Positions 1 to 55,244 are shown, counted from the first letter of the stretch. The stretch: DNA of 64,000 nucleotides from Psilocybe cubensis (GCA_017499595.2 CM039005.1:558001-622000); one strand, 5' to 3'. The notes: generated by a model from the sequence alone, not told the origin. A program made the numbers and translations.

Positions 1-2253
1 GGCTAGTCTAGACTAGTCGGTAACGACAGCCGGAAGCTCGCAAAACTGAGCAACCAATATGAATGTGCTGCAGAACACACATACGTGGCAGCCGTTCCCG
101 CGCCGTTTATCACTTTTTCGAGGTTTCAGGGCTTTCTGGGTACTGTATAATGTAGTATATCCCACGCCAAGCGTGTTTGTAGGTCCTTTGGCAGCGTGAA
201 GTTGAGATAATCAAAAATACATCCGGGGCATCTCAGGAGAGATTCAAACACAAAAACAAGCGTTTGCGAGGCTTTGAAATCACCGTGAAGATCGATAATG
301 ACTACCTAGATAATCTATAATGTGTATACGTCATGACGAATGCAGTAAACTAAGAGTACGGGTAACATTTCAAGCCACAGATGTTAAGCGCCCAAGCAAA
401 CAGCTTCACGCAGACTGTAAATTAGCAAAACACATCGATTCCAATGCTCTATAGACACACCTCGCATACCATACATATCTCAGAGTACACTATAAGACAT
501 ACATACACTCACATATCTCGTCAACGAACCGTCAAGTCCACAACCTCACACTCACGTACCTCCTCCGGCCCCCAATCCGCATTCCAGCCCATTTCCACTG
601 CTTCCTTTCATTTCGGGGCATCATCCCCACTAGCATAAGACTACTCGGCTGCGGCACGGAGCGTTCCGAGACCTAGAAGCAGGACAGAAATGAGTTGCAG
701 TGTAATGCGTCTCGAGGGAGGATATGTACGTGGCATGCGATTCTGCGTCGTTTGCGCGTTTTAAGCGGGTTGGGGTGCTTTTACTGGGTGATATGGGTTA
801 GGTGTGTATGGGGTAAAGCTTGAAAGTACATCAGGGAACCTACAATTGAGTTTATGCGTGTATGTGATGTCGTTGTTCAAATTCGCTTTAGGAAACGTAC
901 ATTTGCGAATTGGGCCGTTTTGAGGTATTCAGATGCTACAGTACTGTTTAAAATAGGGGTATATATTCATATTTATGCTTACCTGAGTAAGTACAAAGTG
1001 GAAATTTCAAAGATTTGCAGCGATGAACCCTTAAGCGCCGAAAGCGTTGAATCGCAAATACAACAAATAAACGCACCAAACACACGATGGTGGACCACTA
1101 ACACGCATGATACACTCACCCCTATACCATACAGCCCATTCTTCGACTCCAAAACTCCAACATCGCAAACCCAACTCACCGGACACAACACTCCTCCTCC
1201 TCGTCCGAATCTCCATTCAACCTCATTCCAACCACCTTCTTTCTCTTCACCCCTGCACGCCCACTAGCTCCAGACCCCTCGGCTATCCTAACGTAACGTA
1301 CTAACGGCGATTACTGAATTTTTTCTGCCAGTAGAAGAAGAAGCATTCTGTAGAGTCCGAGAGACGTTATACGTTGTTTTAATGCAAATTCGATGGAATA
1401 CGTACATTGGGGGGGTTGTAATGGTGCATAGGAGCCCCTGAGTAATCGAACTGAAAGTGAGTGAACGTTGGAACCAAGTCTGAACGTCGACGAAAGTTTG
1501 TGCAAGTCGGATTTCACATCAAGACAAGAAAACACAGAAACGCACAAAAGTACTATTACCATCTTCAACAAACGGACACCAGCATTGCTCTGCACCACTA
1601 ACATTGTCTTAAAGTACATTCTTCACGAAACAAAATCCTAGATATTCCACACACAAAGACAGAGCGTTGACCCGATACACACCCAAGAACCCCCTCCTCC
1701 TCCCCAAAATCGCAAAATCACCTCATCCCAATACGTTTTCCTGGCTCTTCGGCTCCGGAACGGTATTCAAATCCAAATTGCGTAAACCAACTAAAAAGCG
1801 GCGTCTCATTTGAGAAGAATTAGAATGCCTGTGTTGCAACGCGAAATCAGAACAAACCATTGGAGAGATAACGGGTATGCGTACGTACGTTTGCTGTTCC
1901 CGAGTCAATTACTAGTTTATGCAATTCGATTAATGCATGGGTGAATGTGTGTTGACGATCTACGATACGAGTTGGAATTCACTTGATGCAAGGTAGATGA
2001 TACTCGAGTCTAAAGTTCTGTGAGCCGCAAACCAAAAACGATTTGAATTTGAATCTCACATCTCGGACACCAATGTAAATTCAAAGCAACACAACAATAC
2101 CTCCAACACGAAACAGATAACAAACCCATTCGATCAATAGCACATTGCGTAAACGCACTAGCAACTATACCGATGAACCGCGAACCGAGAGAAAGACACA
2201 AAAAAAAAACATTGCAAAGACGTAACGTTATGGACGTACAGGGGCAGCAGGTG

Positions 2254-2345
2254 TATAAAAAGGACACGGACTAACGGGCTTTTTTCCTCATCCCCTCTCC
2301 TCTCCTCTTCTCACATTCTCTTCTCCCGCTCTCCGCTCAATGCCC
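2254..2345 (+). promoter_or_regulatory. TATA box followed by a CT-rich tract (fungal core-promoter-like); present in every unit
   Basis: TATAAAAAG at 2254-2262, then a ~60-nt pyrimidine tract (2280-2340). Nearly invariant even in divergent unit 7 (53091). Confidence 0.5.
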
Positions 2346-2693
2346 TTGTCAGCCCGCCCCTCTCCAACATCCTACACTCGCACTGCACTGCCAATGGACG
2401 GGAACGCACCGGTACGAGTCAACGTGCCCACGACGCCGTGAGTATTCCCCATCCCTCCCCTGAGCTGCGCCACGTCTGACCCTCCCTTCGCAGGAACACG
2501 TTTGACGACGAGTAGAGGATCTGGGAGGTAGAGGTCGGAGTCGGCGACGCGCCATAAATGCCACGCTGGCATGTCGACCGGGGCATCGAGGGCAGCGCAC
2601 GGTGAGCCTCTAACATTTGTTTTCGCATCACACTCCGCCAAACCGCCTTTCTCTGCAGGTTGCCACGCCATCGAGACGACGCGGGACTCGAAT

Positions 2694-3062
2694 GCGCGTG
2701 CTCAGCGAGCTTGAGGACGGGGTAAGTAAATGCATTATTCGACGGGTATCATTGTTGACTGACCTGGACACGCAGAACCTTGCATGTGTGTTCCCAAGAG
2801 TCGGACACGTCGTCGAAACTGTAAGTCAGTCCACACTCGTCAGCAACCGCCTGTGATTGACAACCGCTGCATCAAGACCTGCGCCTGCTCAGCGAGCTTG
2901 AGGACGGAGTAAGTAAACAAGCTATTCAACATGGAACACTGCTGACTGACCTGGACACGCAGAACGACCTTGAATCCGTGTTCCCGAGCGGCGGAAACGC
3001 TGTCGAAAGTGAGTGCATGCTTTGTTCGTCAGACCGCCCGTGATTGACCACCCAATACCAAG
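2694..3062 (+). repeat. Internal ~187-bp direct duplication (two exon-intron pairs)
   Basis: GCTCAGCGAGCTTGAGGACGGNGTAAGTAAA...GACTGACCTGGACACGCAGAAC occurs at ~2700 and ~2887. A third partial CTGACCTAGACACACAG is at ~3149. Confidence 0.9.
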
Positions 3063-3795
3063 GCCGTATCGATTGGGGGGCAGGGAACAATGAGACCTAT
3101 GCAAAAGTAAGTTGTCGTGTCGTTCACCGTGAACCAGCCTGAACTAACCTGACCTAGACACACAGAGCACCCCCAATCTATTCAAAGGCCTACATCCGTT
3201 CAACCGGTGCAGCTCGACACATGCGCTCCGCTCGTTGTGAATCGCCCCTTGACAGCCCGCCTTGCTGCGGATTCCAGTACGCGATTGGGGAATGGACTGG
3301 ACGCGGTGGTGATGTGGTGGATGTGTGAGTACGCTGAGATGTTAGTAGGGAATGACTTGGAATGACCACACACAAGTACAGGTTGTGGTGTTGCCGTGGT
3401 TTCGCATCGGCCGCATATACCGTGGAGATGTGGAGGGAGGTGCCTAGTCGGTGTCCTAAGGATGCCATTGCAGGTTAGTTGACCCGTTGTTCAACGCGAG
3501 TCATGTCAAACTTACCTGAGATGTACATTGCAGGTCTGCGCTACCCTAAAATCTGGCTCTCCAATATCCCAGGCGGCACTCCTGTTGAATGCGAGTCGGG
3601 AACGCCGCAGCAAGGTACGTGACTCGTGTTCTGAACAGTTGTGACTGGGGTATAACGCGTTGTTGATAGGGTGGTGCTGATGGAAAGGATAACAGCAGGC
3701 AAGGGCATTCGTATCGACGCGTATGTCCCATATACGGGCAATGTCGATTCATAGCGGGAGCCGCTGCCTGATTGCCTGCTCCCGTGCATTCGCCT

Positions 3796-4400
3796 TCAAA
3801 CACGCTGAGACGCAGCTCCGCCCGCGTGCTGTCCCTCCATCGGCTCCCCTCCCTCCCCCGCCTGCTCTCCCTCATTCTCCCCCAACCCCCCCTCCTCCGG
3901 ATCCAACCAACTCTCCTCAACCGTCACCTTGACCCTCCTCACATACTCCTTCATATTTTCCCTATACAACTGCGCCGCCTCCGCATTCGCCGGGCTATTC
4001 GGGTTCGGATCATGCAGCAAGCTCTGTATACTCGTCAATATCGCCGCGACGTCGTATGTGGGCGACCACCGGTTTTGCAGGATGTCGAGGCAGAGCTCGC
4101 TGTTCGCGTAGACGTTGGGGTGGAACATCCGCGAGAGGAATTTGACGGTGGGCGGTTTGTTGGGGTAGGACTCGTCGAATGTGAGGAGGAGCTTGAATGT
4201 GCCGTCTTCGAAGGGGGTGTCGCCTGTTGATAGGTGAGTGGCTGGGGGTGAGTGGGGAGAGGAAACGCACCTGGCCCGAAGATGACAGCGTTCCAGAGCA
4301 TAATATTGTCGGGGAGCGGACTGCCCGAGATCCCGCCTGGCGGGTCGGACGAGAGGCGCTTGAAGTCCCGGATGAGCCGTTTCTTGCAGTTCGTCGACAT
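3796..4400 (-). CDS. RAD6: Ubiquitin-conjugating enzyme E2 Rad6/Ubc2, copy 1 (185 aa; exons 4400-4271 and 4223-3796; S85 variant)
   Basis: Splicing out 4270-4224 (GTGCGT...CTCAC...CAG, 47 nt) joins [16 protein letters not shown]...WNAVIFGP to [10 protein letters not shown]...YPNKPP...[26 protein letters not shown]...DPNPNSPAN plus an acidic tail. The catalytic Cys falls at residue 88, as in yeast Rad6. Confidence 0.97.
4224..4270 (-). other. Spliceosomal intron of RAD6 (47 nt, phase 1); present in all 8 copies
   Basis: GTGCGT donor, CTCAC branch point and CAACAG acceptor. Its removal restores the Rad6 reading frame. Confidence 0.95.
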
Positions 4401-5703
4401 TGTTTGCTGAGTAAGATTGGGTCAAGTAATTCGGGTGGCTTTGGTTAAAGCGAGAGAGGGAGGTGTGGTCGTGTCTGAATCGCGTGCTGTTAATGAGGGC
4501 ACTGCGACTGTCGTCGTACACGTCGTCTCGTATGTGGTATGCGGTATTCTAATGATGGTATGCGATATGGATTGTAAAACCTGCAAACCCAACTTTAATT
4601 GTATCTTCCCCTACCAAACCACCCTCAAAACATACCTTTGTACGTGCGTATATGCAAGCGTAAAGTCGTCTCAGGCGGCTGGTATGAAGAAACAAGCAAG
4701 TCAGTCTAACTCAGAAGCAGTGGCAGTGGCAGGCCTCCTCATGTCACGCCCACTGACCGTGACCTGACTCCGCCGCATCTAATCTGGAAACAAACAATAG
4801 CAACAACAATCACTCTGCCGAAATGCCGCAAGTTGACTTTGTCGTTGTAAGTATTTCATTCATCCACAACGGTTGCCCTGAACGATGAGGACGCTCTTTC
4901 ACTCGCAACGGCGCTTGTTCGATTCCCCGCACCCATTGCGCTGTGTCCTGATTGCCCCCGCCGCCTGCTACAATCTTCAAAGTAGTCAACGTATCACTGT
5001 GATTTGACTTTGCCCTCGCCTACGGTCTGGTAAGCATACCACACACTGCAAAGTGCAAAGTGCGGACCACCGGACCCGACGCGCTCGTGCCTGTTTGGCC
5101 TCTACCGTGTCCGCGTCCATCAGCCCACACATGCACACACGCGCTATGCAAACATCACACCGGCACCCCTGACTCAACCCAACTCCCGCGTTCCAATGCG
5201 TTGAGATTTGCACTGTGTAGCGTATCTCGAGAACCACAGGGTATAGCACAACGACTCTCGATGTCTCAGGGATGCTTACTCTGAGCGCAACAATTCTCAA
5301 TGACAGAGACAAAGCAGGACATTTTTTGTATTTTAAGAACACACTTTTGTAAAATTCTAACCAAAAAAGGCAAAATCTATTTATAACTGAAAAAAAGAGC
5401 CTTGTCCACAATGTCCAACCCTCTTCTGGTAACAAACTTCAAGGGTTTCCCCTCCCCCGAAGGGCAGAGAAACAAAGTGACGGGGTGAGGTCCCCCGACA
5501 CATGGTGGGTTAGTAGCAGAAACAGCGGGAAGGGGCATAAAAAGTCAGTGGGGCAAGTCCATAGCCCTACCGTAAAGCTCCGAAAACATACCTAAGCAGG
5601 TTTCTAGATAAATACAAGTCTGCGAGAGATTCAGAATACAACTTACTTGGTAAAGTTTTTGTCATTCAATGGATGCAACGGCAGCAGGCGGCATCGGTGT
5701 CAA

Positions 5704-7028
5704 CTACAATCAAAGTCAGTCACAGTCTATTCAAAGTACAATTCTACAGACTTACCATTCCGAATCTCGCTCGACGGACGGAAATACATAGCGTCGAGGG
5801 TTTTTGCTTGTAAGAAATTTCTAGAGTCAAAGTTAGCAGTAGTTTAGGGAAAGTAAAATCAAGCCCACGTACCAACTATCGTGTCAAAGCACTCGTGCAG
5901 ATGCCCCATCCTGCTCGTCGGACGTCGATATATGGTCTCAAGGTAAATCTAGAGCCAAGGTCAGTAAAAATCCAATAAATGAATGCCATACATACATACC
6001 TCAACGGGCACACAGCTAACAACGCCTGCTCGGCGGACGGCGATACGTCGTGTCAAGGCAAAATCTAGGGTCACGGGTCAGTGATAATTAATGCAAACCA
6101 AGTTGAAGTACACTTACCACTTGGTGTAGATCCTCACACTCGGTCGGCGGACGTCGATACATCATGTCAAAGCAAAATCTAGGGTCACGGTCAGCTTTAA
6201 TTAATGCAAAGCATGTCGAAGTACACATACCACGGGTTTTAGATCCCCACACTCGGTCGGCGGACGTCGATACATTGTGTCAAAGCGAATCTAGGGTCAA
6301 GGTCAGTCTTTGTACATTAAATAAAACTAAAACACACATACCTATGCACCAGAGGTCCAATCCCGGTCAGCGGACGGCGATACGTCGTGTCAAAGTCTAG
6401 AGTCAGAGTCAGTCTCTGTACATTAAATAAAAGTAAACCACACATACCTGTACACCAGAGGTCCAACCCCGCTTGGCGGACGTCGATACGTCATGTCAGA
6501 GCAAATCGGGGTCACCCAGACATCCAATCCCACTCGGCGGACGTCGATACGTTGTGTCAGAGCAAATCTGAGGTCAAGGTCAGTGTGAGTACATATCATA
6601 AAAGTAATACACACATACCTGAAGACCAGAGGTCCAATCCCGCTCGCCGGACGTCGATACGTCGTGTCAGAGCAATATCTAAGGCCAGGGTTAGTCACAA
6701 CTTGTTCAACGAATGCTACAGCACACTTACCACAATAGTGAGGAGGCAGGTAACAGGCGCGCTCGGCGGACGGCGATACGTCGTGTCAGGACTAAATCTT
6801 GGGATAAAATCAGTCTCCGTTTGGTAAATAAATGATACACAACTTACCAGCTCGCCGGAACGCGATACATAGCGTCGGGCTATGTTAACAGGGCATAAAT
6901 CCTTGGATCAAAGTCAGTCTCACTTCTTCAACAAACATCACAGCACATACCAGGTCGGCGGAACACGATATATAGTGTCGAAGCAATTCCATGTCGAGAG
7001 GGGTAGCACACCACCATACTGACAGCAT
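5704..7028 (-). ncRNA. Putative spliced non-coding transcript: tandem exon-intron module array (11 introns), unit 1
   Basis: Minus-strand introns at 6950-6902, 6847-6798, 6730-6679, 6618-6568, 6447-6397, 6341-6291, 6230-6179, 6117-6065, 5999-5949, 5872-5821 and 5755-5704 (49-53 nt). Each has a GTATGT/GTAAGT/GTACGT donor, CTGAC/CTAAC/CTGAT branch point and TAG/CAG/AAG acceptor. Exons share a GACACGACGTATCGACGTCCGCCGA-like core. The first three exons close all three spliced frames. Confidence 0.6.
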
Positions 7029-7524
7029 GGGTACAAAGTAGATGGATAAAAAAAACCCAATATCAGAGTTCTCTTTATACCTTTTTCACCCCAAACTTTT
7101 TCAAAGCCCGCTCTCAGTCACGTAGCAACACTTCTTTCTAGCTTCATCATTTTTACTAGCTTCGCTTCCGAATATTTCCTCATGCCATAACTTTGCATAA
7201 TAGGAGACCTTTACATCCCTTTCTCCACTCCCTCAAACGTGGAATATCAAGCCACAGTGCACCACAAGGCACAAAACTCACTCGCCAAGTCGCAATTGGC
7301 TCAAATTCATGTCCCGTGCAGTAAAAAACCTCACTCCTATCAAGTGAAAATTGTTACGCCATTTTGTAATACCACGTACTAATCTTTGGTAAAGGTCCTC
7401 GTTTCAATTTCTACAGCACATCTAGCTCTGATTTCAATGCAGTAATAGCGTTATCTTCTCCCCAAAGTATTTTTTGGGATTACTTGCTGCAGACCGGTCA
7501 ATTCGAAAGCTATGTCATCACATT

Positions 7525-7680
7525 CAGACACTCTGCACAGGATGCGCTGACGCTGATGCTGCAGACTCTGCGCAAACGATGTGCTTACGCTAACGCTACA
7601 GAGTCTGCGCACACAATGCGCTGACGCTGACTCTGTGCACAGGATGCGCTGCCGCTGACTCTGTACACACGATGCGCTGG
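7525..7680. repeat. Degenerate minisatellite, ~5 copies of a 28-37-bp unit (GACTCTGYGCACAVGATGCGCTGACGCT)
   Basis: Repeats are visible directly. Also at about 16001-16156, 24477-24632, 32956-33111, 41432-41587, 49875-50030 and 58181-58336. Confidence 0.8.
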
Positions 7681-10600
7681 CACTTGGTATTACAACATCG
7701 GCTCGCCGGCGTTCACAAGCCCAGGAACGAGATCACAACTTCCGACGCTCTAGCCTCGTTTAACTAATCGTTAAATCTACGACAAATCGCCCACAGGATC
7801 ACGATCTACGCGTGTTCATTAGGACCCTGCCCTAATTCCCCACAGGTGCGTCATCATTCCACTCTAGGTTTAGTTTGCATCTCAGGAACACAAATTCGAC
7901 TGTAAAGTCTATTTTTCACCTCCGTTCCGAGTCGACGTCATTCACGACAACAACAGTTGGTTCGACTTTGCGAGAGATGTTGGTATTTCGGATATGTTTA
8001 CAACAGTACGTCCTTTGAGTCCTGGTTACTAATCTCACGGGTGACGGAATCATTCGAAAATTAGACACTTCCTTCAAACGCAGGTGCGTGCCAAAGCCGA
8101 CATCCCACTCTATCGATACATCTCGTCTTACTCGTAACCCACTATTTTGAAGTGTTCCGTTCCATTTGACTTTGAGACTAGCGCGTCAGATAATCGGGAG
8201 TTGCTATATTCGAGTGCGCCCGAAAACACATCTATGCAACAACGTCAAGGCCAGTACTCTGACGTACCGCATTTGTTATCTCACCTTTTGCTTGTGTAGA
8301 CGTGCTATGACCTCAACGTAGACATTCAGGAGGTGATTTACGGTGACAACTCACCTTCATTCCAACATTTCCCCAGTTCAAATTCGCATGTCAACCACGG
8401 CGCGGATACCTCCTCGTCTCCCGATTCGTCATTCTAGCGCGTTGCAACCGTCTCATATACCTCGCTTCCAAGAATAGGCTAGTCTAGACTAGTCGGTAAC
8501 GACAGCCGGAAGCTCGCAAAACTGAGCAACCAATATGAATGTGCTGCAGAACACACATACGTGGCAGCCGTTCCCGCGCCGTTTATCACTTTTTCGAGGT
8601 TTCAGGGCTTTCTGGGTACTGTATAATGTAGTATATCCCACGCCAAGCGTGTTTGTAGGTCCTTTGGCAGCGTGAAGTTGAGATAATCAAAAATACATCC
8701 GGGGCATCTCAGGAGAGATTCAAACACAAAAACAAGCGTTTGCGAGGCTTTGAAATCACCGTGAAGATCGATAATGACTACCTAGATAATCTATAATGTG
8801 TATACGTCATGACGAATGCAGTAAACTAAGAGTACGGGTAACATTTCAAGCCACAGATGTTAAGCGCCCAAGCAAACAGCTTCACGCAGACTGTAAATTA
8901 GCAAAACACATCGATTCCAATGCTCTATAGACACACCTCGCATACCATACATATCTCAGAGTACACTATAAGACATACATACACTCACATATCTCGTCAA
9001 CGAACCGTCAAGTCCACAACCTCACACTCACGTACCTCCTCCGGCCCCCAATCCGCATTCCAGCCCATTTCCACTGCTTCCTTTCATTTCGGGGCATCAT
9101 CCCCACTAGCATAAGACTACTCGGCTGCGGCACGGAGCGTTCCGAGACCTAGAAGCAGGACAGAAATGAGTTGCAGTGTAATGCGTCTCGAGGGAGGATA
9201 TGTACGTGGCATGCGATTCTGCGTCGTTTGCGCGTTTTAAGCGGGTTGGGGTGCTTTTACTGGGTGATATGGGTTAGGTGTGTATGGGGTAAAGCTTGAA
9301 AGTACATCAGGGAACCTACAATTGAGTTTATGCGTGTATGTGATGTCGTTGTTCAAATTCGCTTTAGGAAACGTACATTTGCGAATTGGGCCGTTTTGAG
9401 GTATTCAGATGCTACAGTACTGTTTAAAATAGGGGTATATATTCATATTTATGCTTACCTGAGTAAGTACAAAGTGGAAATTTCAAAGATTTGCAGCGAT
9501 GAACCCTTAAGCGCCGAAAGCGTTGAATCGCAAATACAACAAATAAACGCACCAAACACACGATGGTGGACCACTAACACGCATGATACACTCACCCCTA
9601 TACCATACAGCCCATTCTTCGACTCCAAAACTCCAACATCGCAAACCCAACTCACCGGACACAACACTCCTCCTCCTCGTCCGAATCTCCATTCAACCTC
9701 ATTCCAACCACCTTCTTTCTCTTCACCCCTGCACGCCCACTAGCTCCAGACCCCTCGGCTATCCTAACGTAACGTACTAACGGCGATTACTGAATTTTTT
9801 CTGCCAGTAGAAGAAGAAGCATTCTGTAGAGTCCGAGAGACGTTATACGTTGTTTTAATGCAAATTCGATGGAATACGTACATTGGGGGGGTTGTAATGG
9901 TGCATAGGAGCCCCTGAGTAATCGAACTGAAAGTGAGTGAACGTTGGAACCAAGTCTGAACGTCGACGAAAGTTTGTGCAAGTCGGATTTCACATCAAGA
10001 CAAGAAAACACAGAAACGCACAAAAGTACTATTACCATCTTCAACAAACGGACACCAGCATTGCTCTGCACCACTAACATTGTCTTAAAGTACATTCTTC
10101 ACGAAACAAAATCCTAGATATTCCACACACAAAGACAGAGCGTTGACCCGATACACACCCAAGAACCCCCTCCTCCTCCCCAAAATCGCAAAATCACCTC
10201 ATCCCAATACGTTTTCCTGGCTCTTCGGCTCCGGAACGGTATTCAAATCCAAATTGCGTAAACCAACTAAAAAGCGGCGTCTCATTTGAGAAGAATTAGA
10301 ATGCCTGTGTTGCAACGCGAAATCAGAACAAACCATTGGAGAGATAACGGGTATGCGTACGTACGTTTGCTGTTCCCGAGTCAATTACTAGTTTATGCAA
10401 TTCGATTAATGCATGGGTGAATGTGTGTTGACGATCTACGATACGAGTTGGAATTCACTTGATGCAAGGTAGATGATACTCGAGTCTAAAGTTCTGTGAG
10501 CCGCAAACCAAAAACGATTTGAATTTGAATCTCACATCTCGGACACCAATGTAAATTCAAAGCAACACAACAATACCTCCAACACGAAACAGATAACAAA

Positions 10601-14179: not shown

Positions 14180-15504
14180 CTACAATCAAAGTCAGTCACA
14201 GTCTATTCAAAGTACAATTCTACAGACTTACCATTCCGAATCTCGCTCGACGGACGGAAATACATAGCGTCGAGGGTTTTTGCTTGTAAGAAATTTCTAG
14301 AGTCAAAGTTAGCAGTAGTTTAGGGAAAGTAAAATCAAGCCCACGTACCAACTATCGTGTCAAAGCACTCGTGCAGATGCCCCATCCTGCTCGTCGGACG
14401 TCGATATATGGTCTCAAGGTAAATCTAGAGCCAAGGTCAGTAAAAATCCAATAAATGAATGCCATACATACATACCTCAACGGGCACACAGCTAACAACG
14501 CCTGCTCGGCGGACGGCGATACGTCGTGTCAAGGCAAAATCTAGGGTCACGGGTCAGTGATAATTAATGCAAACCAAGTTGAAGTACACTTACCACTTGG
14601 TGTAGATCCTCACACTCGGTCGGCGGACGTCGATACATCATGTCAAAGCAAAATCTAGGGTCACGGTCAGCTTTAATTAATGCAAAGCATGTCGAAGTAC
14701 ACATACCACGGGTTTTAGATCCCCACACTCGGTCGGCGGACGTCGATACATTGTGTCAAAGCGAATCTAGGGTCAAGGTCAGTCTTTGTACATTAAATAA
14801 AACTAAAACACACATACCTATGCACCAGAGGTCCAATCCCGGTCAGCGGACGGCGATACGTCGTGTCAAAGTCTAGAGTCAGAGTCAGTCTCTGTACATT
14901 AAATAAAAGTAAACCACACATACCTGTACACCAGAGGTCCAACCCCGCTTGGCGGACGTCGATACGTCATGTCAGAGCAAATCGGGGTCACCCAGACATC
15001 CAATCCCACTCGGCGGACGTCGATACGTTGTGTCAGAGCAAATCTGAGGTCAAGGTCAGTGTGAGTACATATCATAAAAGTAATACACACATACCTGAAG
15101 ACCAGAGGTCCAATCCCGCTCGCCGGACGTCGATACGTCGTGTCAGAGCAATATCTAAGGCCAGGGTTAGTCACAACTTGTTCAACGAATGCTACAGCAC
15201 ACTTACCACAATAGTGAGGAGGCAGGTAACAGGCGCGCTCGGCGGACGGCGATACGTCGTGTCAGGACTAAATCTTGGGATAAAATCAGTCTCCGTTTGG
15301 TAAATAAATGATACACAACTTACCAGCTCGCCGGAACGCGATACATAGCGTCGGGCTATGTTAACAGGGCATAAATCCTTGGATCAAAGTCAGTCTCACT
15401 TCTTCAACAAACATCACAGCACATACCAGGTCGGCGGAACACGATATATAGTGTCGAAGCAATTCCATGTCGAGAGGGGTAGCACACCACCATACTGACA
15501 GCAT
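14180..15504 (-). ncRNA. Exon-intron module array, unit 2
   Basis: Copy of 5704-7028 (+8476). Confidence 0.6.
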
Positions 15505-22655: not shown

Positions 22656-23980
22656 CTACAATCAAAGTCAGTCACAGTCTATTCAAAGTACAATTCTACA
22701 GACTTACCATTCCGAATCTCGCTCGACGGACGGAAATACATAGCGTCGAGGGTTTTTGCTTGTAAGAAATTTCTAGAGTCAAAGTTAGCAGTAGTTTAGG
22801 GAAAGTAAAATCAAGCCCACGTACCAACTATCGTGTCAAAGCACTCGTGCAGATGCCCCATCCTGCTCGTCGGACGTCGATATATGGTCTCAAGGTAAAT
22901 CTAGAGCCAAGGTCAGTAAAAATCCAATAAATGAATGCCATACATACATACCTCAACGGGCACACAGCTAACAACGCCTGCTCGGCGGACGGCGATACGT
23001 CGTGTCAAGGCAAAATCTAGGGTCACGGGTCAGTGATAATTAATGCAAACCAAGTTGAAGTACACTTACCACTTGGTGTAGATCCTCACACTCGGTCGGC
23101 GGACGTCGATACATCATGTCAAAGCAAAATCTAGGGTCACGGTCAGCTTTAATTAATGCAAAGCATGTCGAAGTACACATACCACGGGTTTTAGATCCCC
23201 ACACTCGGTCGGCGGACGTCGATACATTGTGTCAAAGCGAATCTAGGGTCAAGGTCAGTCTTTGTACATTAAATAAAACTAAAACACACATACCTATGCA
23301 CCAGAGGTCCAATCCCGGTCAGCGGACGGCGATACGTCGTGTCAAAGTCTAGAGTCAGAGTCAGTCTCTGTACATTAAATAAAAGTAAACCACACATACC
23401 TGTACACCAGAGGTCCAACCCCGCTTGGCGGACGTCGATACGTCATGTCAGAGCAAATCGGGGTCACCCAGACATCCAATCCCACTCGGCGGACGTCGAT
23501 ACGTTGTGTCAGAGCAAATCTGAGGTCAAGGTCAGTGTGAGTACATATCATAAAAGTAATACACACATACCTGAAGACCAGAGGTCCAATCCCGCTCGCC
23601 GGACGTCGATACGTCGTGTCAGAGCAATATCTAAGGCCAGGGTTAGTCACAACTTGTTCAACGAATGCTACAGCACACTTACCACAATAGTGAGGAGGCA
23701 GGTAACAGGCGCGCTCGGCGGACGGCGATACGTCGTGTCAGGACTAAATCTTGGGATAAAATCAGTCTCCGTTTGGTAAATAAATGATACACAACTTACC
23801 AGCTCGCCGGAACGCGATACATAGCGTCGGGCTATGTTAACAGGGCATAAATCCTTGGATCAAAGTCAGTCTCACTTCTTCAACAAACATCACAGCACAT
23901 ACCAGGTCGGCGGAACACGATATATAGTGTCGAAGCAATTCCATGTCGAGAGGGGTAGCACACCACCATACTGACAGCAT
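22656..23980 (-). ncRNA. Exon-intron module array, unit 3
   Basis: Copy of 5704-7028 (+16952). Confidence 0.6.
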
Positions 23981-31134: not shown

Positions 31135-32459
31135 CTACAATCAAAGTCAGTCACAGTCTATTCAAAGTACAATTCTACAGACTTACCATTCCGAATCTCG
31201 CTCGACGGACGGAAATACATAGCGTCGAGGGTTTTTGCTTGTAAGAAATTTCTAGAGTCAAAGTTAGCAGTAGTTTAGGGAAAGTAAAATCAAGCCCACG
31301 TACCAACTATCGTGTCAAAGCACTCGTGCAGATGCCCCATCCTGCTCGTCGGACGTCGATATATGGTCTCAAGGTAAATCTAGAGCCAAGGTCAGTAAAA
31401 ATCCAATAAATGAATGCCATACATACATACCTCAACGGGCACACAGCTAACAACGCCTGCTCGGCGGACGGCGATACGTCGTGTCAAGGCAAAATCTAGG
31501 GTCACGGGTCAGTGATAATTAATGCAAACCAAGTTGAAGTACACTTACCACTTGGTGTAGATCCTCACACTCGGTCGGCGGACGTCGATACATCATGTCA
31601 AAGCAAAATCTAGGGTCACGGTCAGCTTTAATTAATGCAAAGCATGTCGAAGTACACATACCACGGGTTTTAGATCCCCACACTCGGTCGGCGGACGTCG
31701 ATACATTGTGTCAAAGCGAATCTAGGGTCAAGGTCAGTCTTTGTACATTAAATAAAACTAAAACACACATACCTATGCACCAGAGGTCCAATCCCGGTCA
31801 GCGGACGGCGATACGTCGTGTCAAAGTCTAGAGTCAGAGTCAGTCTCTGTACATTAAATAAAAGTAAACCACACATACCTGTACACCAGAGGTCCAACCC
31901 CGCTTGGCGGACGTCGATACGTCATGTCAGAGCAAATCGGGGTCACCCAGACATCCAATCCCACTCGGCGGACGTCGATACGTTGTGTCAGAGCAAATCT
32001 GAGGTCAAGGTCAGTGTGAGTACATATCATAAAAGTAATACACACATACCTGAAGACCAGAGGTCCAATCCCGCTCGCCGGACGTCGATACGTCGTGTCA
32101 GAGCAATATCTAAGGCCAGGGTTAGTCACAACTTGTTCAACGAATGCTACAGCACACTTACCACAATAGTGAGGAGGCAGGTAACAGGCGCGCTCGGCGG
32201 ACGGCGATACGTCGTGTCAGGACTAAATCTTGGGATAAAATCAGTCTCCGTTTGGTAAATAAATGATACACAACTTACCAGCTCGCCGGAACGCGATACA
32301 TAGCGTCGGGCTATGTTAACAGGGCATAAATCCTTGGATCAAAGTCAGTCTCACTTCTTCAACAAACATCACAGCACATACCAGGTCGGCGGAACACGAT
32401 ATATAGTGTCGAAGCAATTCCATGTCGAGAGGGGTAGCACACCACCATACTGACAGCAT
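31135..32459 (-). ncRNA. Exon-intron module array, unit 4
   Basis: Copy of 5704-7028 (+25431). Confidence 0.6.
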
Positions 32460-39610: not shown

Positions 39611-40935
39611 CTACAATCAAAGTCAGTCACAGTCTATTCAAAGTACAATTCTACAGACTTACCATTCCGAATCTCGCTCGACGGACGGAAATACATAGCG
39701 TCGAGGGTTTTTGCTTGTAAGAAATTTCTAGAGTCAAAGTTAGCAGTAGTTTAGGGAAAGTAAAATCAAGCCCACGTACCAACTATCGTGTCAAAGCACT
39801 CGTGCAGATGCCCCATCCTGCTCGTCGGACGTCGATATATGGTCTCAAGGTAAATCTAGAGCCAAGGTCAGTAAAAATCCAATAAATGAATGCCATACAT
39901 ACATACCTCAACGGGCACACAGCTAACAACGCCTGCTCGGCGGACGGCGATACGTCGTGTCAAGGCAAAATCTAGGGTCACGGGTCAGTGATAATTAATG
40001 CAAACCAAGTTGAAGTACACTTACCACTTGGTGTAGATCCTCACACTCGGTCGGCGGACGTCGATACATCATGTCAAAGCAAAATCTAGGGTCACGGTCA
40101 GCTTTAATTAATGCAAAGCATGTCGAAGTACACATACCACGGGTTTTAGATCCCCACACTCGGTCGGCGGACGTCGATACATTGTGTCAAAGCGAATCTA
40201 GGGTCAAGGTCAGTCTTTGTACATTAAATAAAACTAAAACACACATACCTATGCACCAGAGGTCCAATCCCGGTCAGCGGACGGCGATACGTCGTGTCAA
40301 AGTCTAGAGTCAGAGTCAGTCTCTGTACATTAAATAAAAGTAAACCACACATACCTGTACACCAGAGGTCCAACCCCGCTTGGCGGACGTCGATACGTCA
40401 TGTCAGAGCAAATCGGGGTCACCCAGACATCCAATCCCACTCGGCGGACGTCGATACGTTGTGTCAGAGCAAATCTGAGGTCAAGGTCAGTGTGAGTACA
40501 TATCATAAAAGTAATACACACATACCTGAAGACCAGAGGTCCAATCCCGCTCGCCGGACGTCGATACGTCGTGTCAGAGCAATATCTAAGGCCAGGGTTA
40601 GTCACAACTTGTTCAACGAATGCTACAGCACACTTACCACAATAGTGAGGAGGCAGGTAACAGGCGCGCTCGGCGGACGGCGATACGTCGTGTCAGGACT
40701 AAATCTTGGGATAAAATCAGTCTCCGTTTGGTAAATAAATGATACACAACTTACCAGCTCGCCGGAACGCGATACATAGCGTCGGGCTATGTTAACAGGG
40801 CATAAATCCTTGGATCAAAGTCAGTCTCACTTCTTCAACAAACATCACAGCACATACCAGGTCGGCGGAACACGATATATAGTGTCGAAGCAATTCCATG
40901 TCGAGAGGGGTAGCACACCACCATACTGACAGCAT
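39611..40935 (-). ncRNA. Exon-intron module array, unit 5
   Basis: Copy of 5704-7028 (+33907). Confidence 0.6.
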
Positions 40936-46178: not shown

Positions 46179-46750
46179 TCAAACACGCTGAGACGCAGCT
46201 CCGCCCGCGTGCTGTCCCTCCATCGGCTCCCCTCCCTCCCCCGCCTGCTCTCCCTCATTCTCCCCCAACCCCCCCTCCTCCGGATCCAACCAACTCTCCT
46301 CAACCGTCACCTTGACCCTCCTCACATACTCCTTCATATTTTCCCTATACAACTGCGCCGCCTCCGCATTCGCCGGGCTATTCGGGTTCGGATCATGCAG
46401 CAAGCTCTGTATACTCGTCAATATCGCCGCGACGTCGTATGTGGGCGACCACCGGTTTTGCAGGATGTCGAGGCAGAGCTCGCTGTTCGCGTAGACGTTG
46501 GGGTGGAACATCGGGTAGGACTCGTCGAATGTGAGGAGGAGCTTGAATGTGCCGTCTTCGAAGGGGGTGTCGCCTGTTGATAGGTGAGTGGCTGGGGGTG
46601 AGTGGGGAGAGGAAACGCACCTGGCCCGAAGATGACAGCGTTCCAGAGCATAATATTGTCGGGGAGCGGACTGCCCGAGATCCCGCCTGGCGGGTCGGAC
46701 GAGAGGCGCTTGAAGTCCCGGATGAGCCGTTTCTTGCAGTTCGTCGACAT
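46179..46750 (-). pseudogene. RAD6: Rad6/Ubc2 copy 6 with a 33-bp in-frame deletion (residues 65-75, [11 protein letters not shown]); probably non-functional
   Basis: The junction GGAACATC|GGGTAGG at 46512/46513 gives ESYP|MFHPN. This removes the conserved YPxxPP-V-F segment of the UBC fold while the ORF stays open. Confidence 0.8.
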
Positions 46751-48053: not shown

Positions 48054-49378
48054 CTACAATCAAAGTCAGTCACAGTCTATTCAAAGTACAATTCTACAGA
48101 CTTACCATTCCGAATCTCGCTCGACAGACGGAAATACATAGCGTCGAGGGTTTTTGCTTGTAAGAAATTTCTAGAGTCAAAGTTAGCAGTAGTTTAGGGA
48201 AAGTAAAATCAAGCCCACGTACCAACTATCGTGTCAAAGCACTCGTGCAGATGCCCCATCCTGCTCGTCGGACGTCGATATATGGTCTCAAGGTAAATCT
48301 AGAGCCAAGGTCAGTAAAAATCCAATAAATGAATGCCATACATACATACCTCAACGGGCACACAGCTAACAACGCCTGCTCGGCGGACGGCGATACGTCG
48401 TGTCAAGGCAAAATCTAGGGTCACGGGTCAGTGATAATTAATGCAAACCAAGTTGAAGTACACTTACCACTTGGTGTAGATCCTCACACTCGGTCGGCGG
48501 ACGTCGATACATCATGTCAAAGCAAAATCTAGGGTCACGGTCAGCTTTAATTAATGCAAAGCATGTCGAAGTACACATACCACGGGTTTTAGATCCCCAC
48601 ACTCGGTCGGCGGACGTCGATACATTGTGTCAAAGCGAATCTAGGGTCAAGGTCAGTCTTTGTACATTAAATAAAACTAAAACACACATACCTATGCACC
48701 AGAGGTCCAATCCCGGTCAGCGGACGGCGATACGTCGTGTCAAAGTCTAGAGTCAGAGTCAGTCTCTGTACATTAAATAAAAGTAAACCACACATACCTG
48801 TACACCAGAGGTCCAACCCCGCTTGGCGGACGTCGATACGTCATGTCAGAGCAAATCGGGGTCACCCAGACATCCAATCCCACTCGGCGGACGTCGATAC
48901 GTTGTGTCAGAGCAAATCTGAGGTCAAGGTCAGTGTGAGTACATATCATAAAAGTAATACACACATACCTGAAGACCAGAGGTCCAATCCCGCTCGCCGG
49001 ACGTCGATACGTCGTGTCAGAGCAATATCTAAGGCCAGGGTTAGTCACAACTTGTTCAACGAATGCTACAGCACACTTACCACAATAGTGAGGAGGCAGG
49101 TAACAGGCGCGCTCGGCGGACGGCGATACGTCGTGTCAGGACTAAATCTTGGGATAAAATCAGTCTCCGTTTGGTAAATAAATGATACACAACTTACCAG
49201 CTCGCCGGAACGCGATACATAGCGTCGGGCTATGTTAACAGGGCATAAATCCTTGGATCAAAGTCAGTCTCACTTCTTCAACAAACATCACAGCACATAC
49301 CAGGTCGGCGGAACACGATATATAGTGTCGAAGCAATTCCATGTCGAGAGGGGTAGCACACCACCATACTGACAGCAT
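48054..49378 (-). ncRNA. Exon-intron module array, unit 6
   Basis: Copy of 5704-7028 (+42350), with a G>A at 48126. Confidence 0.6.
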
Positions 49379-52300
49379 GGGTACAAAGTAGATGGATAAA
49401 AAAAACCCAATATCAGAGTTCTCTTTATACCTTTTTCACCCCAAACTTTTTCAAAGCCCGCTCTCAGTCACGTAGCAACACTTCTTTCTAGCTTCATCAT
49501 TTTTACTAGCTTCGCTTCCGAATATTTCCTCATGCCATAACTTTGCATAATAGGAGACCTTTACATCCCTTTCTCCACTCCCTCAAACGTGGAATATCAA
49601 GCCACAGTGCACCACAAGGCACAAAACTCACTCGCCAAGTCGCAATTGGCTCAAATTCATGTCCCGTGCAGTAAAAAACCTCACTCCTATCAAGTGAAAA
49701 TTGTTACGCCATTTTGTAATACCACGTACTAATCTTTGGTAAAGGTCCTCGTTTCAATTTCTACAGCACATCTAGCTCTGATTTCAATGCAGTAATAGCG
49801 TTATCTTCTCCCCAAAGTATTTTTTGGGATTACTTGCTGCAGACCGGTCAATTCGAAAGCTATGTCATCACATTCAGACACTCTGCACAGGATGCGCTGA
49901 CGCTGATGCTGCAGACTCTGCGCAAACGATGTGCTTACGCTAACGCTACAGAGTCTGCGCACACAATGCGCTGACGCTGACTCTGTGCACAGGATGCGCT
50001 GCCGCTGACTCTGTACACACGATGCGCTGGCACTTGGTATTACAACATCGGCTCGCCGGCGTTCACAAGCCCAGGAACGAGATCACAACTTCCGACGCTC
50101 TAGCCTCGTTTAACTAATCGTTAAATCTACGACAAATCGCCCACAGGATCGCGATCTACGCGTGTTCATTAGGACCCTGCCCTAATTCCCCACAGGTGCG
50201 TCATCATTCCACTCTAGGTTTAGTTTGCATCTCAGGAACACAAAGTCGACTGTAAAGTCTAATTTTCACCTCCGTTCCGAGTCGACGTCATTCACGACAA
50301 CAACAATTGGTTCGACTTTGCGAGAGATGTTGGAATTTCGGATATATTTATCACAGTACGTCCTGCGAGTTCTTGTTGCCGCTATTCTCACGGGTTACGA
50401 AATCACTCGAAAATTAGACACTTCCTTCAAACGCAGGTGCGTGTCGAAGCCGACAACCCACTGGACCGACACATCTCGTCTTGCCCGTAAGCCGCTCCTT
50501 TGTAGTCTTCCGTTCCCGTTGACTTTGAATGAAACGGACTAGCGCAGAGTTGCTAGATTCGAGTGCGCCCGAAAACACATCTATGCGACAACGTCAAGGC
50601 AAGTAATCTGACGCACCGCATTCGTTATCTCACCTTTTGCTTGTGTAGACGTGCTATGACCTCAACGTAGACATTCAGGAGGTGATTTACGGTGAGAACT
50701 CACCTTCATTCCAACATATCCCCAGTTCAAATTCGCATAAACCACGGCGCGGATACCTCCTCGTCTCCCGATTCGTCATTCCAGCGCGTTGGAACCGTCT
50801 CATTTACCTCGCTTCCAAGAATAGGCTAGTCCAAATTGCCTAGACTAGTCGGTAACGACAGCCGGAAGCTCGCACAACTGAGCAACCATCTGCAGAACAC
50901 ACATACGTGGCAGCCGTTCCCGCGCCGTTTATCACTTTTTTGAGGTTTCAGGGCTTTCTGGGTACTGTCTAATGTAGTGTATCCCACGCCAAGCGTGTTT
51001 GTAGGTCGTTTGGCAGCGTGAAGTTGAGATAATCAAAAATACATCCGGGGCATCTCAGGAGAGATTCAAACACAAAAACAAGCGTTTGCGAGGCTTTGAA
51101 ATCACCGTGAATATAGATAATGGCTACCTAGATAATATACACTGTGTAATTATGATGACAAATGAAGTAAACTAAGAGGATGGGTAACCACAGATGTTAA
51201 GCGCCCAAGCAAACAGCTTCACGCATACTGTAAATGAGCAAAATACATCGATTCCAATGCTCTACAGACACACCTCGCATACCATACATATCTCAGAGTA
51301 CACTATAAGACATACATAAACTCACATATCTCGTCAACGAACCACCAACTCCACAACCTCACACTCACGTACCTCCTCCGGCCCCAAATCCGCATTCCAG
51401 CCCATTTCCACTGCTTCCTTTCATTTCGGGGCATCATCCCCACTAGCATAAGACTACTCGGCTGCGGCACGGAGCGTTCCGAGGCCTAGAAGCAGGACAG
51501 AAATGAGTTGCAGTGTAATGCGTCTCGAGGGAGGATACGTACGTGGCATGCGATTCTGCGTCGTTTGCGCGTTTTAAGCGGGTTGGGGTGCTTTTACTGG
51601 GTGATATGGGTTAGATGTGTATGGGGTAAAGCTTGAGAGTACGTCAGGGAGCCTACAATTCAGTGTATGCGTGTATGTGATGTCGTTGTTCAAATTCGCT
51701 TTAGGAAACGTACATTTGCGAATTGGGCCGTTTTGAGGTATTCAGATGCTACAGTACTGTTTAAAATAGGGGTATATATTCATATTTATGCTTACCAGAG
51801 TAAGTACGAAGTGGAAATTTCAAAGATTCGTAGTGATACCTCTTAAGCGCCGAAAGCGTTGAATCACAAATACCACGAATAAACGCACCAAGCACACAAC
51901 GGTGGATCAATAACAGGCTTAACACACTCACCCCTATACCATACAGCCCATTCTTCGACTCCAAAACTCCAACATTGCAAACCCAACTCACCGGACACAA
52001 CACTGCTCCTCCTCATCCGAATCTCCATTCAACCTCATTCCAAACGTCTTCTTTCTCTATCCCTGCACGACCACTAGCTCCAGACCCCTCGGCTATCCTA
52101 ACGTAACGTACTAACGGCGATTACTGAATTTTTCTTTTTTTTTGCCAGTAGAAGAAGAAGCATTCTGTAGAGTCCGAGAGACGTTATACGTTGTTTTAAT
52201 GCAAATTCGATGGAATACGTACATTGGGGGGGTTGGAATGGTGCATAGGAGCCCCTGAGTAATCGAACTGAAAGTGAGTGAACGTTTGAGCCAAGTCTGA

Positions 52301-53090
52301 ACGTCAAGGAAAGTTTGTGCAAGTCGGATTTCACATCAAGACAAGAAAACACAGAAACGCACGAAAGTACCATTACCATCTTCAACAAAAAGACACCGGC
52401 ATCGCTCTGCACCACTAACATTATCTTAAAGTACATCCTTCAGGAGACCAAACCCTCGATATTCCACACACAAAGACAGAGCGTTGACCCGATACACACC
52501 AAGAACCCCCTCCTCCTCCCCAAAATCGTAAAATCACCTCATCCCAATACGTTTTCCTGGCTCTTCGGCTCCGGAACGGGTCTCCACCGCCTATCCTATT
52601 CGAATCCAAATTGCGTAAACCAACTAAAAAGCGGGGTCTCATTTGAGAAGAATTAGAATGCCTGTGTTGCAATGCGAAATCAGAACAAACCATTGGAGAG
52701 ATAACGGGTATGCGTACGTACGTTTGCTGTTCCCGAGTCGATTACTAGTTTATGCAATTCAGTTAACACATGAGTGAATGTGTGTTGACGATCTACGATA
52801 CGGGTTGGAATGCACTTGATGCAAGAGTGGATGATACTCGAGTCTTAAGATCTGTGAGCCGCAAACCAAAAACGATTTGAATTTGGATCTCACATCTCGG
52901 ACACCAATGTAAATTCAAAGTACCACTGCATTACCAGTCAAAAACGAAACAAATAACAAACCCGTTCGATCAATAGCACATTGCGTAACTGCACTAGCAA
53001 CTATACCGATGAACCGCGAACCGAGAGAAAGACACGAAAAAAAAAACCTTGCAAAGACGTAACGTTATGGACGTACAGGGGCAGCAGGTG

Positions 53091-54556
53091 TATAAAAAGG
53101 ACACGGACTAACGGGCTTTTTTCCTCATCCCCTCTCCTCTCCTCTTCTCACATTCTCTTCTCCCGCTCTCCGCTCAACGCCCTTGTCAGCCCGCCCCTCC
53201 CCGATATCCTACACTTGCACTGCACTGCCAATGGACGGGAACGCACCGGTACGAGTCAACGTGCCCACGACGCCGTGAGTATTCCCCATCCCTCCCCTAG
53301 CTGCGCCACGTCTGACCCTTCCCTTCGCAGGAACACGTTTGACGACGAGTAGAGGATCTGGGAGGTAGAGGTCGAAGTCAGCGACGCACCATAAATGCCA
53401 CGTTGGCATGTCGCCCGGGGTATTGAGGGCAGCGCACGGTGAGCTTCCAACATTCATTTTCGCATCACACTCCACAACTCCGCCTTTTTCTACAGGTTGC
53501 CACGCCATCGAGACGACGCGGGACTCGAATGCGCCTGCTCAGCGAGCTTGAGGACGAGGTAAGTAAATGCATTATTCAACGTGTATCATTGTTGACTGAT
53601 CTGGACACGCAGAACCTTGAATCCGTGTTCCCGAGCGGCGGACACGCTGTCGAAAGTGAGTCCGCGCTTTATTCGTCATACCGCCCGTGATTGACCACCC
53701 CTACATCAAGACCTGGGCCTGCTCAGCGAGCTTGAGGACGGAGTAAGTAAACAAGCTATTCAACATGGAACACCGCTGACTGACCTGGACACGCAGAACG
53801 ACCTTGAATCCGTGTTCCCGAGCGGCGGACACGCTGTCGAAAGGGTGAGTCCATGTTTTGTTCGTCAGACCGCCCGTGATTGACCACCTCTACCACAGGG
53901 CTGAATTGATTCGCTGTCAGAGAACACCCGAACCTATGCAAAAGTAAGTTGACGTACCGCTCACCGTGAATCAGGCTGAACTGACCTGGACACGCAGAGT
54001 ATCTGTGCTAGACCAGCTGCCCTCAATCCAGTCCAAGCAATCCGTTGTTGACCGATGGAATCGAAACGCGCGCTCGGTTCGCTGTGAACCCCGCCTTGTC
54101 ATCCCGCCTTGCTGCTGATTCCAGTACGCGATCGGGGAATGGACTGGACGCGGTGGTGATGTGATGGATGCGTGAATACACTGGAATGTTAGTCGGGAAT
54201 GGCTTGGACTGACCATGCCGTCGTCGCCAGAGACTACAGCCGTGGTGTAGGCATCGTTTCGCATCGGAGGCAGGGGCCTAGTCAACGTCCTTGGGGATAT
54301 CAATGCTGGTAAGTCGACCCATTGCTCGATGCGAGTCATGTCAAACTTACCTGAGATGTACATTGCAGGTCTGCGCTACCCTAAAATCTGGCTCTCCAAT
54401 ATCCCAGGCGGCACTCCTGTTGAATACAAGTCGGGAACGCCGCAGCAAGGTACGTGACTCGTGTTCTGAACAGTTGTGACTGGGGGAATAACGCGTTGTT
54501 GATAGGGTGGTGCTGATGGAAAGGGGATCGACGGGCAAGGGCATTCGTATCGACGC
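53091..54556 (+). ncRNA. Divergent allele of the plus-strand intron-dense unit (unit 7)
   Basis: Many substitutions relative to the other units, yet donors and acceptors are kept (e.g. GTGAGC...CTACAG, GTAAGT...ACGCAG, GTGAGT...CCACAG, GTAAGT...TTGCAG). Confidence 0.55.
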
Positions 54557-54615
54557 GTATGTCCCATATACGGGCAATGTCGATTCATAGCGGGAGCCGC
54601 TGCCTGCATTCGCCT

Positions 54616-55244
54616 TCAAACACGCTGAGACGCAGCTCCGCCCGCGTGCTGTCCCTCCATCGGCTCTCCTCCCTCCCTATCAACCTCGTCCATCTCCACC
54701 TCCCCTCCCTCCCCCTCACCCTCGCCCAAACCCCCCTCCTCCGGATCCAACCAACTCTCCTCAACCGTCACCTTGACCCTCCTCACATACTCCTTCATAT
54801 TCTCCCTATACAACTGTGCCGCCTCCGCATTCGCCGGGCTATTCGGGTTCGGATCATGCAGCAAGCTCTGTATACTCGTCAGTATCGCCGCGACGTCGTA
54901 CGTCGGCGACCACCGGTTCTGCAGGATGTCGAGGCAGAGCTCGCCGTTCGCGTAGACGTTGGGGTGGAACATCCGCGAGAGGAATTTGACGGTGGGGGGT
55001 TTGTTTGGGTAGGACTCGTCGAATGTGAGGAGGAGCTTGAATGTGCCGTCTTCGAAGGGGGTGTCGCCTGTTGATAGGTGAGTGGCTGGGGGTGAGTGGG
55101 GAGAGGAAACGCACCTGGGCCGAAGATGACAGCGTTCCAGAGCATAATATTGTCGGGGAGCGGACTGCCCGAGATCCCGCCTGGCGGGTCGGACGAGAGG
55201 CGCTTAAAGTCCCGGATCAGCCGTTTCTTGCAGTTCGTCGACAT
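54616..55244 (-). CDS. RAD6: Rad6/Ubc2 copy 7, divergent and canonical-like (193 aa; G85; longer acidic tail; intron 55114-55068)
   Basis: Reads [15 protein letters not shown], with tail [29 protein letters not shown]. About a dozen synonymous differences from the other copies (counted by eye). Confidence 0.97.

Follow-up and report, generated by a model that had tools for sequence, protein, structure and literature searches.

A tandem array of exon-intron modules beside RAD6 and the spliced non-coding repeat RNA that it probably makes

When a degenerate repeat of ~110 bp resolves on one strand into short exons separated by short introns, and the exons carry no continuous reading frame, what does the locus make: a protein whose frame has decayed, an RNA built of repeats, or nothing beyond a by-product of repeated DNA? 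The question is raised by positions 7028 to 5704 (minus strand) of the 64,000-nt stretch of DNA analysed here, which we call the window. Running from the first ATG to the last acceptor, this array holds 12 core-bearing modules and 11 intron-like segments, and the unit that is repeated is the whole exon-plus-intron module of ~110 bp.

Introns were sought with a pattern that starts with GTAAGT, GTATGT or GTACGT, contains CTGAC, CTAAC or CTGAT, and ends with AAG, TAG or CAG. This search recovered the eleven minus-strand introns of 49-53 nt, and the exon lengths between them, that an earlier note on this DNA had described; every one of the eleven carries GTA[ATC]GT, CT[AG]A[CT] and AG. They are GT-AG introns of 49-53 nt, as against 47-62 nt for the five flanking introns that are skipped in the contigs of two public sequencing runs, X1 and X2, whose RNA-like behaviour is set out below. 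The introns of the array are as follows:

6902 to 6950, minus strand: intron 1, 49 nt, from the pattern
6798 to 6847, minus strand: intron 2, 50 nt, from the pattern
6679 to 6730, minus strand: intron 3, 52 nt, from the pattern
6568 to 6618, minus strand: intron 4, 51 nt, from the pattern
6397 to 6447, minus strand: intron 5, 51 nt, from the pattern and an RNA-like joint of matching module types
6291 to 6341, minus strand: intron 6, 51 nt, from the pattern, with the donor border 6342 used in an X1 contig
6179 to 6230, minus strand: intron 7, 52 nt, from the pattern
6065 to 6117, minus strand: intron 8, 53 nt, from the pattern and its exact removal in X1 contigs
5949 to 5999, minus strand: intron 9, 51 nt, from the pattern
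5821 to 5872, minus strand: intron 10, 52 nt, from the pattern
5704 to 5755, minus strand: intron 11, 52 nt, from the pattern; the match of an X2 contig stops at the exon 11 border, 5756

The internal exons measure, from 5' to 3', 54, 67, 60, 120, 55, 60, 61, 65, 76 and 65 nt. When the 12 modules are aligned, conservation is confined to four blocks (exon core, donor, branch site and acceptor); intron interiors and the second halves of exons differ in sequence from module to module, and the latter differ in length as well. The core that was said to be shared by every exon proved to be a CpG-rich element of ~30 nt, present in 12 copies per array and with six CpGs in its consensus. Tandem Repeats Finder detects the younger central modules only (periods of 106-113 and 171, with 80-86% matches), and the core emerges from the repeat finder as 28-44 nt in 11-13 copies. 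The following features complete the anatomy of the array:

6642 to 6671, minus strand: example of the core, from module 4, ~30 nt and CpG-rich
6448 to 6567, minus strand: exon 5, two fused modules, 120 nt
7074 to 7079, minus strand: TATAAA, a possible core promoter, ~50 nt upstream of the ATG at 7028
5462 to 5703, minus strand: terminal exon and 3' region, with an X1 contig over 5462-5588

Exon 5 originated by a genomic deletion offset from the intron borders, in which the tail of one exon was lost together with most of an intron; 9 nt from the 3' end of that intron remain. It is therefore not a precise intron loss.

The array is itself part of a larger amplification: the window (1-64000) consists of ~7.5 head-to-tail copies of a unit of ~8,476 bp. 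Matches to the core pattern number 56, eight in each of seven arrays, and successive arrays are spaced by 8476, 8476, 8479, 8476, 8443 and 8306 bp. Across the interval equivalent to 5704-7028 the seven arrays differ at 6 positions only. Copies 2 to 7 below were identified by the core pattern and by comparison of the arrays:

14180 to 15504, minus strand: array copy 2
22656 to 23980, minus strand: array copy 3
31135 to 32459, minus strand: array copy 4
39611 to 40935, minus strand: array copy 5
48054 to 49378, minus strand: array copy 6
56360 to 57684, minus strand: array copy 7, whose downstream flank deviates below the position equivalent to 5698

Five other copies of the unit are 98.8-100% identical to the first, and the sixth has a 33-nt deletion. 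The seventh is chimeric (50840-56353): the part equivalent to 8-5518, which is the RAD6 half, is only ~90% identical and has indels, and from the position equivalent to 5698 onward identity is 99.8%. Each unit also contains a direct repeat of ~173 nt, with adjacent copies at 2693-2865 and 2880-3052 (77% identity).

The placement of RAD6 ~1.3 kb from the array and in the same orientation, also given in the earlier note, holds:

3796 to 4400, minus strand: RAD6/UBC2-type E2 gene, two coding exons with a 47-nt intron at 4224-4270; Pfam UQ_con, E 3.4e-39

The gene starts at 4400, downstream of the array and 1.3 kb from its last intron, and it is the sole source of Pfam families in the unit. Eight RAD6 copies lie in the 64 kb, all with an open frame; copies 6 (46179-46750) and 7 (54616-55244) have in-frame indels in the acidic C-terminal tail, where 33 nt were lost and 24 nt gained, respectively.

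Evidence of transcription comes from contigs of four public runs, which were compared with positions 3000-9000 of the window; X1 and X2 are RNA-like, X3 and X4 DNA-like. None of the runs is recorded as RNA, and the RNA nature of X1 and X2 is presumed from their behaviour: five GT..AG introns, that of RAD6 and four more in the flanks, are skipped by their contigs, their depth is zero over 4809-5411, and X3 and X4 contain none of these intron-skipping joints, so X1 and X2 behave as RNA. Just 0.31-0.36 of the sampled words occur in X1 and X2, and the strain from which they derive is somewhat different from that of the window, with differences and indels in the flanks. The interval devoid of RNA-like cover, 4809-5411, lies between the 3' region of the array and RAD6; the RAD6 gene is context and not part of the array RNA.

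At the array joints, contig letters were compared with the window by eye. The earlier note had looked to junction reads across the eleven predicted introns, and this expectation was borne out in part: among the joints listed, one junction, that of intron 8, matches the window exactly, and two further joints fall at module borders with strain differences. Intron 8 is exactly removed in X1 contigs, whose loose ends at 6065 and 6118 equal window 6119-6131 and 6049-6064 letter for letter. The other joints, at the borders of introns 5, 6 and 7, include differing letters. In one, the last base of exon 6 (6342) is joined to an exon-8-type start via five differing letters (X1, 6172>6342); in the other, a module start follows directly on an exon-5b-type end, with a few letters differing (X1, 6392>6454; X2, 6569>6454). 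In our reading, these non-exact joints come from a slightly diverged strain that has the same array but either lacks module 7 or skips it. An X2 contig also has an intron-less junction of the exon 5 kind, and the joint 6576>6626 is such a junction and not a splice; another X2 contig matches the window as far as the exact border of exon 11 (5756), beyond which its sequence is foreign to the window. Some joints appear to go back, as they would in back-splicing, but the DNA-like runs have these joints too, and that interpretation was therefore rejected. With exons joined at predicted borders in RNA-like contigs, the array introns look real.

The same contigs report on other parts of the unit. A divergent spliced transcript occupies 7113-8444 on the plus strand and begins ~85 nt from the array ATG (RNA-like contigs start at 7113 and 7124); its introns, 7344-7394 and 7846-7907, are skipped in X1 and X2, it has no ORF above 91 codons, and it contains 28- and 37-nt tandem repeats at 7541-7679. 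On the minus strand, RNA-like contigs run past the RAD6 stop through 3094-3832, where two introns (3097-3148 and 3456-3515) are spliced and the ORFs match no Pfam family; the segment represents either a further non-coding transcript or an extended, spliced 3' UTR. Most of the unit is apparently non-coding but spliced. The variant junctions of the seventh copy recur in DNA-like contigs of X3 and X4, which argues against a pure assembly artefact, though the assembly itself may have been built from these runs. As a rough hint, the depth of an X3 contig with a variant letter, 50.8 beside 385 for the main form, corresponds to about eight copies.

Could introns of this form arise by chance in a repeated sequence? 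The array contains 14 donor positions of the intron pattern, far above chance: 500 shuffled sequences averaged 0.28 and never exceeded 4. The remainder of the unit's minus strand, ~7.1 kb, has six. The claim that splice signals are kept while intron interiors drift was upheld by the comparison of modules, with roughly 80-90% identity against ~45%: over the 55 pairs of introns, mean pairwise identity is 0.90 at the donor, 0.80 at the branch site and 0.84 at the acceptor, and 0.45-0.47 in the interiors. In all but one of the 11 introns, 12 nt separate the branch-point A from the 3' splice site. Within exons, identity is 0.71 in the core (a value lowered by one mis-registered module) versus 0.42 in the tails. 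Because core and splice signals are held while the rest drifts, we take the RNA and its splicing to be under constraint, with the qualification that the likeness of neighbouring modules may come from recent duplication or gene conversion and not from selection.

If the array encoded a protein, its exons should join into a frame, and they do not. As had been noted, translation from ATG 7028 would end after 45 codons, at a stop in exon 3, and exon 2 closes both remaining frames; once introns are spliced at the consensus sites, no frame is free of stops and no continuous ORF results. In a search of all alternative splice paths, the longest path from an ATG with consensus-type donors has 156 codons and needs two consensus introns to be retained. 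Allowing any GT as donor, one can contrive an ATG path of 297 codons, a point against the non-coding reading; it was set aside, since one of the sites that it requires conflicts with the observed intron 8 joint and it retains consensus introns. No Pfam family was found for five ORFs of the array, and a word-indexed protein search gave no match among four candidates, the query of the protein search being a read-through ORF that holds two modules. Four weak matches among 1.84 billion protein representatives (E 3e-6 to 8e-4) were rejected as homologues: on reading their sequences, all are unrelated, internally repetitive proteins, as expected of repeat-on-repeat artefacts. The array therefore shows no sign of coding for protein.

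A past coding function is a different matter. An exon of 60 nt, encoding 20 residues, might have been duplicated together with its intron in the gene of a repeat protein that was decaying or evolving very fast, its frame later broken by indels, so that what remains is a transcribed pseudogene. One frame is indeed stop-free in all modules but one, several exons (54, 60, 60 and 120 nt) are multiples of three, and some differences among cores fall at third positions of the open frame; the open frame and these exon lengths would fit a former 20-residue repeat protein and count against the non-coding reading. That frame, however, lacks a start codon in exon 1 and is interrupted by internal exons whose lengths, as the earlier note had remarked, are not consistently multiples of three (six of the 10 are not). 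Much of the variation in the core is explained by CpG decay, since 29 of the 66 departures from consensus are at CpG positions (12 of the 30 columns), 15 of these 29 being C>T or G>A. Moreover, the same frame breaks recur in all seven copies, neither a Pfam match nor a credible homologue exists among the sequences searched, and near-consensus splice signals in 11 of 11 introns are unexpected in a long-dead gene. We consider this origin unlikely.

The 45-codon frame could still matter if it were translated, for at least nine introns would then follow its stop and the transcript would be a constitutive target of nonsense-mediated decay, tuning the shared promoter region or soaking up decay factors. 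The position of the ATG is reasonable for this, ~50 nt after TATAAA, and the stop in exon 3 is followed by nine more introns; against it, the peptide has no relatives or family in the searches of overlapping ORFs. Such a surveillance-controlled, short-peptide transcript strikes us as highly improbable.

Membership in a described class of structured RNA finds no more encouragement. Across the whole 64,000-nt window Rfam returned no match at gathering score, rRNA included, and a permissive search of 5300-8600 gave two sub-threshold matches, SNORD45 (23.7 bits) and ceN56 (17.9 bits), the second of which was taken as chance. The first is the sole sub-threshold match inside the array:

5932 to 6000, minus strand: SNORD45 sub-threshold match, 23.7 bits against a cut-off of 42, E 0.21, covering intron 9 and the start of exon 10

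It, too, is probably due to chance. A snoRNA host gene was dismissed on the grounds that introns of 49-53 nt are too short and that Rfam gives no match at gathering score. A consensus fold of the 12 exons predicts no pairs, and hence no conserved RNA fold.

Small RNAs had been among the products suggested for the locus: spliceosomes stalling on its many introns would feed an RNAi pathway, or the repeats would supply an RNA-dependent RNA polymerase. The transcript is repeated, multi-intronic and non-coding, as such a precursor might be, and spliceosome-coupled production of siRNAs, the precedent invoked for this idea, reportedly occurs in Cryptococcus. The data lend that analogy no support. The introns are strong, not weak, all eleven being near-consensus and 10 of them having the 12-nt branch-point spacing; all core matches are on one strand, so that the array consists of direct repeats only; and it shares with the complement of the rest of the unit four 12-mers, none of them meaningful. 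Strong introns, the absence of inverted repeats and the lack of complementarity to the unit all weaken the idea, which we regard as very unlikely.

Is the array, or its core, found elsewhere? Within the window, to which the comparison with introner-like elements is limited, introns similar to those of the array occur solely inside the arrays. The core has no match in a metagenome collection, and 80 metagenome loci containing RAD6 (67-98% identity) share no blastn similarity with the unit outside the RAD6 coding region (0 of 85 matches). Neither a core-like site, at up to five mismatches, nor an analogous upstream array was found in these 80 loci; two tandem arrays with a period of at least 40 are present, neither of them upstream of RAD6 nor alike. 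Seven weak tblastx matches outside RAD6 in the same loci were judged spurious. Given the absence of the core from both the collection and the 80 loci, the array looks lineage-specific. No relative carries it, so cross-species conservation, the usual sign of function, is absent, which counts against the reading that we prefer.

Closer to home, the core is probably also present at other loci of the genome. DNA-like contigs of X3 and X4 match 29-34 nt of the core (for example 6642-6675, 6842-6876 and 6955-6985) and then run into sequence absent from the window, and in two of these contigs the spacer between cores is 31 or 38 letters long and does not resemble an intron. Two neighbouring pieces of the core are matched by an RNA-like contig of high abundance (depth ~790 in X1, ~670 in X2). 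Joints with sides of 20 nt were discarded, being expected by chance in a genome of this size on a rough estimate, and sides of 29-34 nt were kept as hints.

Cores at other loci, with spacers unlike introns, would favour an explanation chiefly at the level of DNA. The array might consist of CpG-rich binding sites with an ACGT core, or be a minisatellite or the remnant of a dispersed repeat; an intron would have been present in the founding unit by chance, and transcription and splicing would be by-products of a divergent promoter near 7100. The CpG density of the core and the failure to find cross-species conservation agree with such an element. Nevertheless, donor, branch site, acceptor and their 12-nt spacing are kept in introns whose interiors have drifted to ~45% identity, which points to a constraint on splicing and not only on the DNA core. 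An element that acts chiefly at the DNA level is, in our judgement, improbable.

The observed exon joints, together with the lack of a long spliced ORF and of any match to a protein or RNA family, make an RNA of tandem motif copies, assembled by splicing as the earlier note had envisaged, the best reading of this locus, and on balance we hold that its product is a spliced non-coding repeat RNA. The gene would be a lineage-specific one of RNA polymerase II type, enlarged by tandem duplication of a single ~110 bp exon-plus-intron module. Transcription of the minus strand would extend from ~7045 to near 5460 (both ends being approximate), eleven near-consensus short introns would be removed, and the mature RNA would be a head-to-tail chain of at least 12 CpG-rich cores of ~30 nt connected by variable linkers of ~10-45 nt; tandem amplification of the ~8.5-kb unit would multiply the array seven-fold or more. 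Such an RNA may act as a multivalent platform or decoy for a factor that recognizes the core, and its splice signals may be maintained because splicing and its attendants (export, surveillance, stability marks) matter for the RNA. If the product is such a spliced RNA, a selected multivalent function has an appreciable minority chance, the alternative being a tolerated by-product.

More tentatively still, the whole array could be a selected device for making multivalent RNA by splicing, a proposal that we consider unlikely. Each module would contribute one 30-nt core, and the conserved introns would load splicing-dependent marks between the copies; amplification of the unit would bring the total to about a hundred cores per genome; other transcripts that carry the core, some of them highly expressed, would be the natural targets of a factor titrated or organised by the RNA; and the array would be a fungal counterpart of the repeat lncRNAs of animals.

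Repeat-built lncRNAs are known mainly from animals, in which the repeats are the working parts; the RRD repeat of one of them, Firre, is 156 nt long. In Firre, this local repeat makes up 7 of 13 exons in human and 11 of 23 in mouse, forms a functional RNA module that binds hnRNPU and mediates nuclear retention, and is described as largely confined to its locus and fast-evolving between lineages (PMC4820808). The likeness is one of architecture only: the array, like Firre, appears to be spliced and non-coding and has one local repeat in many exons. Firre differs in having long introns that hold other repeats, whereas here the introns are ~51 nt and the repeated unit is the entire exon-intron module of ~110 bp. 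The array is also about ten times smaller, has a fungal-looking host and no sequence relationship to Firre, and its function is one that we infer.

Multivalent decoy or scaffold lncRNAs include NORAD, with its Pumilio sites, and the meiRNA of fission yeast, with its Mmi1 sites. These resemble the array in that one RNA bears a short motif many times over, and act by binding many copies of one protein; their motifs, unlike those of the array, all sit within one exon, with no introns between them, and the factor that would bind the core is hypothetical. Genes for repeat proteins can grow by unequal crossing-over that duplicates an exon along with its intron, a mode of growth that the array shares, with module sizes near multiples of three, but without their continuous frame, a start codon in the open frame, or homologues. 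The 8.5-kb unit, as distinct from the array, recalls tandem gene amplification at CUP1 of yeast, where a unit of several kilobases with an intact gene is likewise repeated head to tail in near-identical copies; here, in contrast, the amplified gene is a RAD6-type E2 enzyme for which no selective agent is known, and most of the unit is apparently non-coding but spliced. Judged from titles and the openings of abstracts, the literature describes no fungal counterpart built module by module of exon and intron.

What sets the array apart is that it probably makes a repeat RNA of fungal type whose unit is a complete exon-intron module, with splice signals held while the rest drifts. The eight-fold tandem amplification of a unit containing RAD6 is an unusual structural feature in its own right. 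Should the array prove a merely tolerated by-product, it would still be a clear case of tandem duplication copying working introns; a binding factor or a phenotype, if found, would raise its importance. If our reading is true, the locus would offer a compact system, with exons of ~60 nt and introns of ~51 nt, in which to ask why non-coding RNAs keep their introns, and a model for the origin of multivalent RNAs by unequal crossing-over.
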